64,000 nt of DNA from the NCBI GenBank assembly GCA_964016885.1, contig OZ024740.1, forward strand, positions 313,968,001 through 314,032,000. Reading direction: 5' to 3'. This stretch comes from Eledone cirrhosa. Its lineage: Eukaryota. Shown one piece after another: positions 25,499 through 26,588 of the stretch. Position 1 is the first letter of the stretch. Every line of letters begins with the position of its first letter. The position numbers and the translations under genes were made by a program. The notes below the pieces were generated by a model. That model did not search any database and was not told the origin of the DNA. It saw nothing but the letters and a program-made list of their open reading frames with translations.

Positions 25499-25545
<47 letters not shown>

Positions 25546-25586
25546 AAATAAATAAGTCAAATATTTAAAATTTAGCTTCGTTTATT

Positions 25587-25641
25587 ACTGCTATATATAT
25601 TTCGGTGACAGCCATCTTTGGCTGTGACCTCTTCAGGCAGT
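25587..25641 (-). ncRNA. Minimal type I hammerhead ribozyme (left-arm copy, family C)
   Basis: Minus strand: ACTGC-CTGAAGA-GGTCACAGCCA aaga TGGCTGTCACC-GAAA-TATATA-TA-GCAGT. Confidence 0.8.
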
Positions 25642-26006
25642 CCGAATTAGTGTGGTAGAGACAAGTACATATGTTGTTGAGGTGTATAACTTTGTCAATA
25701 CTCTGATATGCCCAGTTCCTGGTTGGGTTGTTATTTCACTGAGGAAATGGAATCATATGATTTAATTTATAATAAATTGGAGTGAAAGCAACATGACCCT
25801 CCCAAAGCATAACAATATCGGTTTCAACACACGTTTTCAGATAAAGAATCTTGCTAAACAAATTCAGAAACGAAATATATATATATTTCATATGATTCCA
25901 GTTCCTCAGTGAAATAACAACCCAACCAGGAACTGGGCATATCAGAGTATTGACAAAGTTATACACCTCAACAACATATGTACTTGTCTCTACCACACTA
26001 ATTCGG

Positions 26007-26059
26007 ATTGCCTGAAGAGGTCACAGCCAAAGATGGCTGTCACCGAAATATATAGCAGT
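26007..26059 (+). ncRNA. Minimal type I hammerhead ribozyme (right-arm copy, family C)
   Basis: ATTGC-CTGAAGA-GGTCACAGCCA aaga TGGCTGTCACC-GAAA-TATA-TA|GCAGT: intact core, 10/11-bp stem II, palindromic UAUA loop III. Confidence 0.8.
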
Positions 26060-26588
26060 AATAAACGAAGCTAAATTTTAAACATTTGACTTATTTATTT
26101 TATTTTATTTTACATTACTCCGGAGTAACCAAACCAACCTGCGCACTTCGTCGAGTGCTCCAATCTGTATACTGAGGTGTTGGTATACAACCAACATATA
26201 CTCAAAATCTATATATATATATATTTCTTTAGGTTTGTTGGTTCACCACTGGATAGAATTGGTCATTCCGTATGGTCAATCTTGGTGTAATATTATGGAG
26301 AGTATTCAACGTAGTGCAGTTCACCCGTCTTCGTTTGTGTAGTTGGTGGTGCGAATACAGAGTTCTAGTCCAGGCTCCTGTTATTTTATTCATATATATA
26401 TATTTCGTTTCTGAATTTGTTTAGCAAGATTCTTTATCTGAAAACGTGTGTTGAAACCGATATTGTTATGCTTTGGGAGGGTCATGTTGCCAATAAGAAA
26501 CACACACACCAGTTGCTTTCACTCCAATTTATTATAAATTAAATTTATAAATTTAAGAAATTATAAATTTCCATATTTATAAATTTCC

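Follow-up and report, generated by a model that had tools for sequence, protein, structure and literature searches.

A probable head-to-head pair of hammerhead-bearing pseudo-LTR ends from a Penelope-like element in a (TA)n repeat of Eledone cirrhosa

We analysed a 64,000-nt stretch of the Eledone cirrhosa genome (assembly GCA_964016885.1, contig OZ024740.1, positions 313,968,001 to 314,032,000; hereafter the window, in whose coordinates all positions are given), which contains an inverted repeat of a family that we call C, with a hammerhead ribozyme motif on each strand. With a probability of about 0.92, we interpret this locus as a head-to-head pair of 5'-truncated 3' pseudo-LTR (pLTR) ends of a ~4.1-kb Penelope-like element with Hydra-clade motifs, likely inserted into (TA)n in a single event and carrying hammerheads that are likely passive. 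Family C is a new family of a known clade, and the locus itself is an ordinary retroelement remnant.

The two arms (25538-25760, minus strand, and 25888-26108, plus strand) are 97.8% identical over 223 nt (E 1e-106); three substitutions and one 2-nt indel separate them, in agreement with an earlier, sequence-only reading of this DNA, which had noted ~220-bp arms with few differences. That reading had placed a single family-C element at 25539..26210; its arms stand, but the tail of ~97 nt runs on to about 26212, and the spacer between the arms belongs to another family, D (Table 1). The left arm ends at the first of two family-C 3' end sites (equivalent to 26108-15), where it abuts the (TA)n. 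Except for a 26-nt deletion, located at a short direct repeat, the spacer is identical to the local family-D copy at 26392-26544; it also contains a short TA run and is flanked by two copies of the palindrome TCATATGA. Judged from its sequence, the spacer may be a later family-D insertion, in which case the doubled TCATATGA would represent an 8-bp target duplication, or it may be a templated copy of the neighbour at 26392-26544; these two readings are not separable, because the D copies are too alike. The whole-window inverted-repeat search was swamped by (TA)n. Family D (window 26392-26585; L106-L124), which is likely also a Penelope-like element, is a very young hammerhead-bearing repeat: its copies are 96-100% alike, with two end sites ~68 nt apart and a helix III that is not a clean palindrome. 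To the right of the locus, the right end of the repeat remnant at 26226..26391 resembles, by eye, the TA-abutting end of a hammerhead family with helix III UGAUCA, and the summed depth of this remnant is high in public contigs. At the locus, four public contig sets gave only short pieces that are common to other copies, carried nothing specific to this locus and revealed no empty site.

Table 1. Features of the family-C locus and its immediate flanks (window coordinates)
Feature	Position	Strand
(TA)n microsatellite, left target flank	25503..25539	.
Left arm: tail-less family-C pLTR copy, inverted and 5'-truncated	25538..25760	-
Minimal type I hammerhead motif, family-typical form, helix III palindrome AUAUAUAU	25587..25641	-
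Spacer, 127 nt: 3' end of another hammerhead-bearing repeat family (D)	25760..25886	+
Right arm: family-C pLTR, from 5' hotspot (25888-90) to first end site	25888..26108-26112	+
Minimal type I hammerhead motif, derived variant with one TA lost from loop III and C>U in stem I	26007..26059	+
Tail, ~97 nt, up to second end site	26113..about 26212	+
(TA)n, right target flank	26210..26224	.
Remnant of further repeats	26226..26391	.
Family-D copy, 5'-truncated, 3' end facing TA run	26392..26585	-

The parent of the arms is an endonuclease-bearing Penelope-like element, with a reverse transcriptase (RT) and, at its C-terminal end, an endonuclease of the GIY-YIG type. We found 7,233 exact matches in the 3.0-Gb genome to a 21-mer that spans the hammerhead cut site, and none to its reversed control. 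Walking upstream from longer copies in the same genome leads from a non-coding 3' UTR to a GIY-YIG endonuclease (motifs CxCX5C, VY..YIG, CxxC and CxH) and then to an RT with the motifs RWK, DKT and YRDD. The Pfam GIY-YIG profile scores 22.7 bits in the parent against a cut-off of 22.6. A Pfam search of the RT part gave no RT match; a homology search with the same part found 46 sequences at E<=1e-3, the best at 44% identity, among which the three named as animal are octopod, and of two top homologues scanned, one (P0026) scores RVT_1 above the cut-off. Partial tandems place hammerheads 4,135 nt apart, giving a unit of ~4.1 kb whose pseudo-LTR contains the hammerhead. In near-full-length copies the tail runs into the 5' UTR, and the ATG lies ~50 nt beyond the tail, ~200 nt downstream of the hammerhead cut site. 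None of the 12 near-full-length copies fetched has an unbroken ORF, so that any present activity is putative; the four longest copies have RT and endonuclease in separate frames. In the youngest family-C copies (L194, L195, L196, L198), the RT and thumb-endonuclease frames differ across a low-complexity insert with G runs; this difference could reflect decay, assembly error or a programmed frameshift.

The motifs of the parent point to the Hydra clade, a placement made by comparing them by eye with excerpts of published alignments. RWK, DKT (from DKG), YRDD, CxCX5C, CxxC and CxH are all given for this clade (PMC8557442), and its members described by Craig et al. 2021 (PMC8557442), including Hydra-1_Obim, share with family C the RWK, DKT, CxCX5C linker, C-terminal GIY-YIG, CxxC and CxH, together with (TA)n targets, a hammerhead near the 3' end and inverted 5'-truncated copies; Penelope-13_HM is listed there with a hammerhead on each strand. 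Family-C insertions also favour (TA)n, and the CCHH motif is absent (by eye, no more than one cysteine lies between VY and YIG). Family C differs from the clade in its 4.1-kb length, long 3' UTR, low-complexity insert after the RT core and tail of ~97 nt: the Hydra norms are a unit below 3 kb and a tail of 30-40 bp (PMC8557442), and the 4,135-nt unit exceeds the former, which is typical rather than diagnostic. Its hammerhead, with a 10/11-bp stem II and an all-AU helix III, matches none of the hammerheads compared from File S2 of the same study (PMC8557442). In a search of the literature, the listed records gave no description of family C or of its 5' boundary.

Two fixed positions account for nearly all of the 3' ends. 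Among 129 mapped ends, a sample that includes 30 loci picked by their tail, 123 fall at 26108-18 (48) or 26203-24 (75), usually followed by (TA)n; the left arm ends at the first of these sites and the right arm at the second. Among the first 100 matches listed, 42 lie in head-to-head pairs: we counted 21 such pairs within 5 kb, as against two tail-to-tail and one tandem, and 10 of the 21 are 301-346 nt apart. Scaled up from 60 Mb of one contig, this amounts to ~1,500 pairs genome-wide. Given these frequencies and the 7,233 21-mer matches, the locus is ordinary for family C. Inverted 5'-truncated copies, tails and pLTR hammerheads are also the published layout of such elements (PMC8557442, PMC2377424), and minimal hammerheads on opposite strands 100-700 bp apart were reported in 2014 (PMC4209133).

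The lizard Poseidon protein nicks and extends both strands, and the two internal sites at which its RT starts set the limits of the tail (PMC11167929). If family C behaves as this protein does in vitro, its endonuclease would nick both strands of the TA repeat, RT would be primed from each nick at one of the two internal start sites, and the use of two start sites would yield a tail-less left arm and a tailed right arm; the two cDNAs would then be joined end to end, head to head. The family-D fragment would have entered the arm junction at joining or later. On this analogy, both arms likely come from one retrotransposition event; the arms are no more alike than unrelated copies, and the C that they have in common at 25990 is also found in 33 of 84 others. 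A pair of long inverted arms set in a TA target might suggest a MITE, that is, a DNA-transposon derivative with terminal inverted repeats, but the junction points differ from copy to copy, the ends are asymmetric (only one side has a tail) and an RT-endonuclease ORF follows in the longer sequence. The RT-bearing parent refutes this explanation, to which we assign next to no probability.

Comparison with other characterized systems places the locus among Penelope-like relatives. As in Poseidon PAc of Anolis (Frangieh et al. 2024, PMC11167929), there are two internal end sites, a tail directed toward the ORF start, AT-rich targets and genomic copies that rarely start at the hammerhead cut site; unlike PAc, which belongs to another clade and whose ORF starts inside the hammerhead, family C has its ATG ~200 nt past the cut. 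The minimal hammerheads of PMC4209133 share with family C a 5-bp helix I, a long helix II, an unstable palindromic helix III and thousands of dispersed copies with opposite-strand pairs 100-700 bp apart, whereas helix II of family C is longer (10/11 bp, with a conserved C-C mismatch) and its structure as drawn here lacks the extra base that usually follows CUGANGA. Metazoan non-LTR retrozymes (Li et al. 2026, bioRxiv 10.64898/2026.07.22.740005) are similarly non-coding, pLTR-related and equipped with a type I hammerhead, but they are described as tandem arrays with one hammerhead per unit, in contrast to the inverted pair with a coding parent found here. We rejected a non-LTR retrozyme as the identity of this locus: its pair is inverted, and the sole same-strand pair among the first 100 matches listed is 4.1 kb apart.

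We found that the 5' ends of copies concentrate at a CATATG motif at 25888-90. Ends joined to (TA)8 number 92 at 25890 and 9 at the cut site or loop III, as opposed to none at a second CATATG (25975) that served as a control; this control used the common variant at 25975, present in 26 of 31 anchored copies outside the arm-selected set, and a first control 19-mer occurs in 0 of 65 sampled copies and so is invalid alone. Among the sites compared, 25890 is the farthest from the priming sites, yet has the most 5' ends. In tail-selected copies, 10 of 42 ends fall at 25888-90, and in a sister family, F, which is only 63-71% identical to family C, the starts of 9 of 29 copies lie no more than 2 nt from the homologous CATATG, and two copies extend beyond it. 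The hotspot lies 117-119 nt before helix I. In Penelope of Drosophila virilis, a 75-nt intron ends at helix I, and the transcription start is 46 nt before this intron (PMC2377424, PMC4209133). By analogy, 25888-90 may be the transcription start of the pLTR. Loci picked by their ORF start argue against this: 0 of 30 begin at 25888-90, and ~10 extend past it. A nick or template-jump site at 25888-90 is the alternative. In a single one of these 30 loci, a TA run is followed by a copy whose first base is exactly that of the cut site; cleavage and microhomology would both fit.

The cut site lies within most of the short copies, and their templates were therefore uncut. We tentatively propose, as a possibility that we would not bet on, that CATATG is the transcription start and that most short copies are full cDNAs of uncut RNA primed at the end sites beside its 5' end; cleavage would then remove templates rather than mature them, and priming on two strands would have seeded the ~1,500 near-perfect hairpins of 200-300 bp. 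If this is true, the family-C hairpins would be ready ADAR substrates as well as a genome-scale record of how inverted ends form. An unlikely refinement, itself compatible with the Penelope-pair explanation, is that a non-autonomous subfamily, similar to a SINE or a retrozyme, includes the arms; its 225-325-nt RNA, starting at 25888-90, would be transcribed from solo pLTRs and amplified in trans. It would account for the hotspot (92 against 0 at the control CATATG), for the 10 of 42 ends in tail-selected copies and for the same boundary in family F, but a nick site, or full-length RNA being primed close to its 5' end, explains the hotspot equally well. The short copies resemble long-copy pLTRs at 94-98%, sequence comparison gave no sign of a separate lineage, and the fetched loci showed no arrays in which the short unit is repeated head to tail.

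Two minor features lie near this boundary. A 9-bp hairpin, found by eye, sits directly behind the pLTR 5' hotspot (window 25897-25938). Upstream of the hammerhead of family F (L207-L235), we noted by eye a motif that resembles a splice donor (GTAAG/GTAAAC), a pyrimidine tract and an AG, with stem I beginning at the G of this AG, which together delimit an intron-like stretch of ~52 nt, as in Drosophila Penelope; by eye, family C is without that AG.

For the hammerheads, we follow the textbook convention in numbering and in the NUH rule. A motif scan of both strands of the window recovered the two arm hammerheads and one other. In the plus-strand arm, a 5-bp stem I (26007-11/26055-59) encloses CUGAAGA (26012-18), stem II (26019-44) and GAAA (26045-48), followed by UAUA and UA, with a predicted cut after 26054. 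The minus-strand motif, whose core starts from 25636, also has CUGAAGA, GAAA, UA and a 5-bp stem I, with the loop UAUAUA and a predicted cut after 25592. Stem II has 10 of 11 pairs formed in both motifs, with one C-C mismatch. The sequence-only reading had described both copies as keeping CUGAAGA, a 10/11-bp stem II, GAAA and a UA site, and had called loop III (UAUA versus UAUAUA) a TA repeat with a predicted dimerisation palindrome; the scan confirmed the former, and AUAUAU and AUAUAUAU are both self-complementary. The isolated motifs fold into stems I and II with z scores of -3.6 and -3.1 (200 shuffles, of which two fold as well). An Rfam search of the whole window at gathering thresholds gave no match, a result that is not informative against minimal hammerheads. 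Together, the elements present (CUGANGA, GAAA, UH, helices I and II) and the three stem pairs changed on both sides between families support the arm motifs as genuine hammerhead motifs of the minimal type I. Predicted folding further supports helix III as a dimer-type palindrome that is unstable in the monomer: its monomer probability is at most 0.004, and even the dimer helix III is predicted to be weak, at -3.2 kcal/mol for the typical form versus -0.8 for that of the plus-strand arm.

These hammerheads are nevertheless likely to be passive passengers at the locus. In read-through RNA from either direction, the antisense arm is transcribed first, and the minimum-energy fold is a duplex of ~220 bp in which the hammerhead is predicted to be locked: the pair probability of stem II is ~1e-23, and forcing the hammerhead costs 69-72 kcal/mol, values that are equilibrium predictions for a duplex that editing could loosen. 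The two motifs lie on opposite strands, so that dimerisation in cis is impossible. The TA lost from loop III and the stem I C>U change of the plus-strand arm are each found in 0 of 84 other copies. Related minimal hammerheads show no monomer cleavage and low dimer cleavage in vitro (PMC4209133), and cleavage by the lizard Poseidon hammerhead is protein-assisted (PMC11167929); cutting in the master element probably requires a dimer or the help of protein. Because of the cost of opening the duplex, the weak helix III, the mutations of the plus-strand arm and the low activity of relatives, it is the duplex reading that is plausible, and not self-cleavage. The duplex would, if the locus is transcribed, be a plausible substrate for ADAR or Dicer, and the earlier suggestion of ~220-bp dsRNA from read-through is to this extent borne out by the predicted fold, whereas its companion, self-cleavage of the same transcripts, runs against the burial of the hammerhead.

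The intact core in both arms, the folding of stems I and II in the isolated motif and the covariation of the family's stems could be taken to indicate a functional, active ribozyme cassette whose read-through transcripts self-cleave on either strand. We consider this very improbable. Sequestration in the duplex (~70 kcal/mol) and the monomer helix III probability oppose it, as do the mutated plus-strand arm and the cores of inserted copies, which are without selection; in addition, (TA)8 is joined at the cut site in only 9 copies genome-wide, compared with 92 at 25890. The description of this locus as the best candidate for an active ribozyme is not supported either, as the arm chosen for the assay is the mutated variant.

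Between families, the hammerhead motif is kept. In an alignment of family C with sister lineages found by homology, 97% of stem cells are paired and three pairs are changed on both sides, figures that come from 10 distinct rows and few lineages and therefore represent few independent events; slid controls gave 12-68% paired, and the sole core change between families is at the variable core base. Inserted copies, in contrast, decay neutrally: 70 copies, chosen by sequence outside the hammerhead, carry 8 core substitutions versus 10.4 expected (P=0.29). The core is kept at the family level, whereas the inserted copies show no selection on it. Selection on the core, suggested by raw rates of 1.0% versus 3.3% in the flanks, was rejected, as the difference disappears when base composition and sites that mark subfamilies are taken into account.

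The arms are well preserved, at two and three substitutions from the column majority, compared with a median of five in other copies. The earlier claim that they form the youngest, best-preserved element is not supported: 13 of 84 copies are nearer the column majority (0-1 substitutions), a subfamily only ~91-92% like the window unit has closest copies ~99% identical over 4.4-5.6 kb and is younger, and the neighbouring D copies are 96-100% alike.

The idea that loop III and the cleavage site mimic the genomic TA target was likewise not upheld. In the fetched loci, sister hammerhead families carry UGCGCA, UGAUCA, CACGUA or CCACUGG as helix III, and a TA run lies downstream, at a distance of up to 200 nt, in 16 of the 17 sister-family copies checked; the published (TA)n-targeting Hydra hammerheads given in PMC8557442 also have a non-TA helix III. 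Because sister families that end at (TA)n carry non-TA helix III, loop III keeps self-complementarity rather than target mimicry. Only one of the 129 mapped 3' ends lies at 26054.

With thousands of young copies, 3' ends fixed at two sites, a single fixed 5' boundary and few ends at the cut site, family C is useful material: it bears on the role of the pLTR hammerhead and on the formation of inverted ends, both left open in the papers cited here. If transcribed, its head-to-head pairs would add long duplexes that drive A-to-I hyper-editing; a lizard Penelope element is reported to be heavily edited (PMC5625713).

Elsewhere in the window, a G+C-rich (55%) segment at 62000-64000 contains two open frames of 180-219 codons, for which a Pfam search gave no match. 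A 72-bp tandem array lies at 56134-57079 and a 2.6-kb TA-rich stretch at 46451-49030. A dispersed repeat of ~200 bp occurs in both orientations at 14700-14920, 29390-29620, 31890-32100, 38290-38480, 54380-54570, 57430-57680 and 61910-62160. More fold-back elements lie in TA runs at 1986-2100, 5448-5728, 6264-6450 and 52345-52662, the first with hammerhead-like cores on both strands. Finally, a second head-to-head hammerhead pair is found at 39758-40056 (cores at 39853, minus strand, and 39961, plus strand; helix III CACGUA); it has the same two-end layout in (TA)n and is likely another Penelope-like family.
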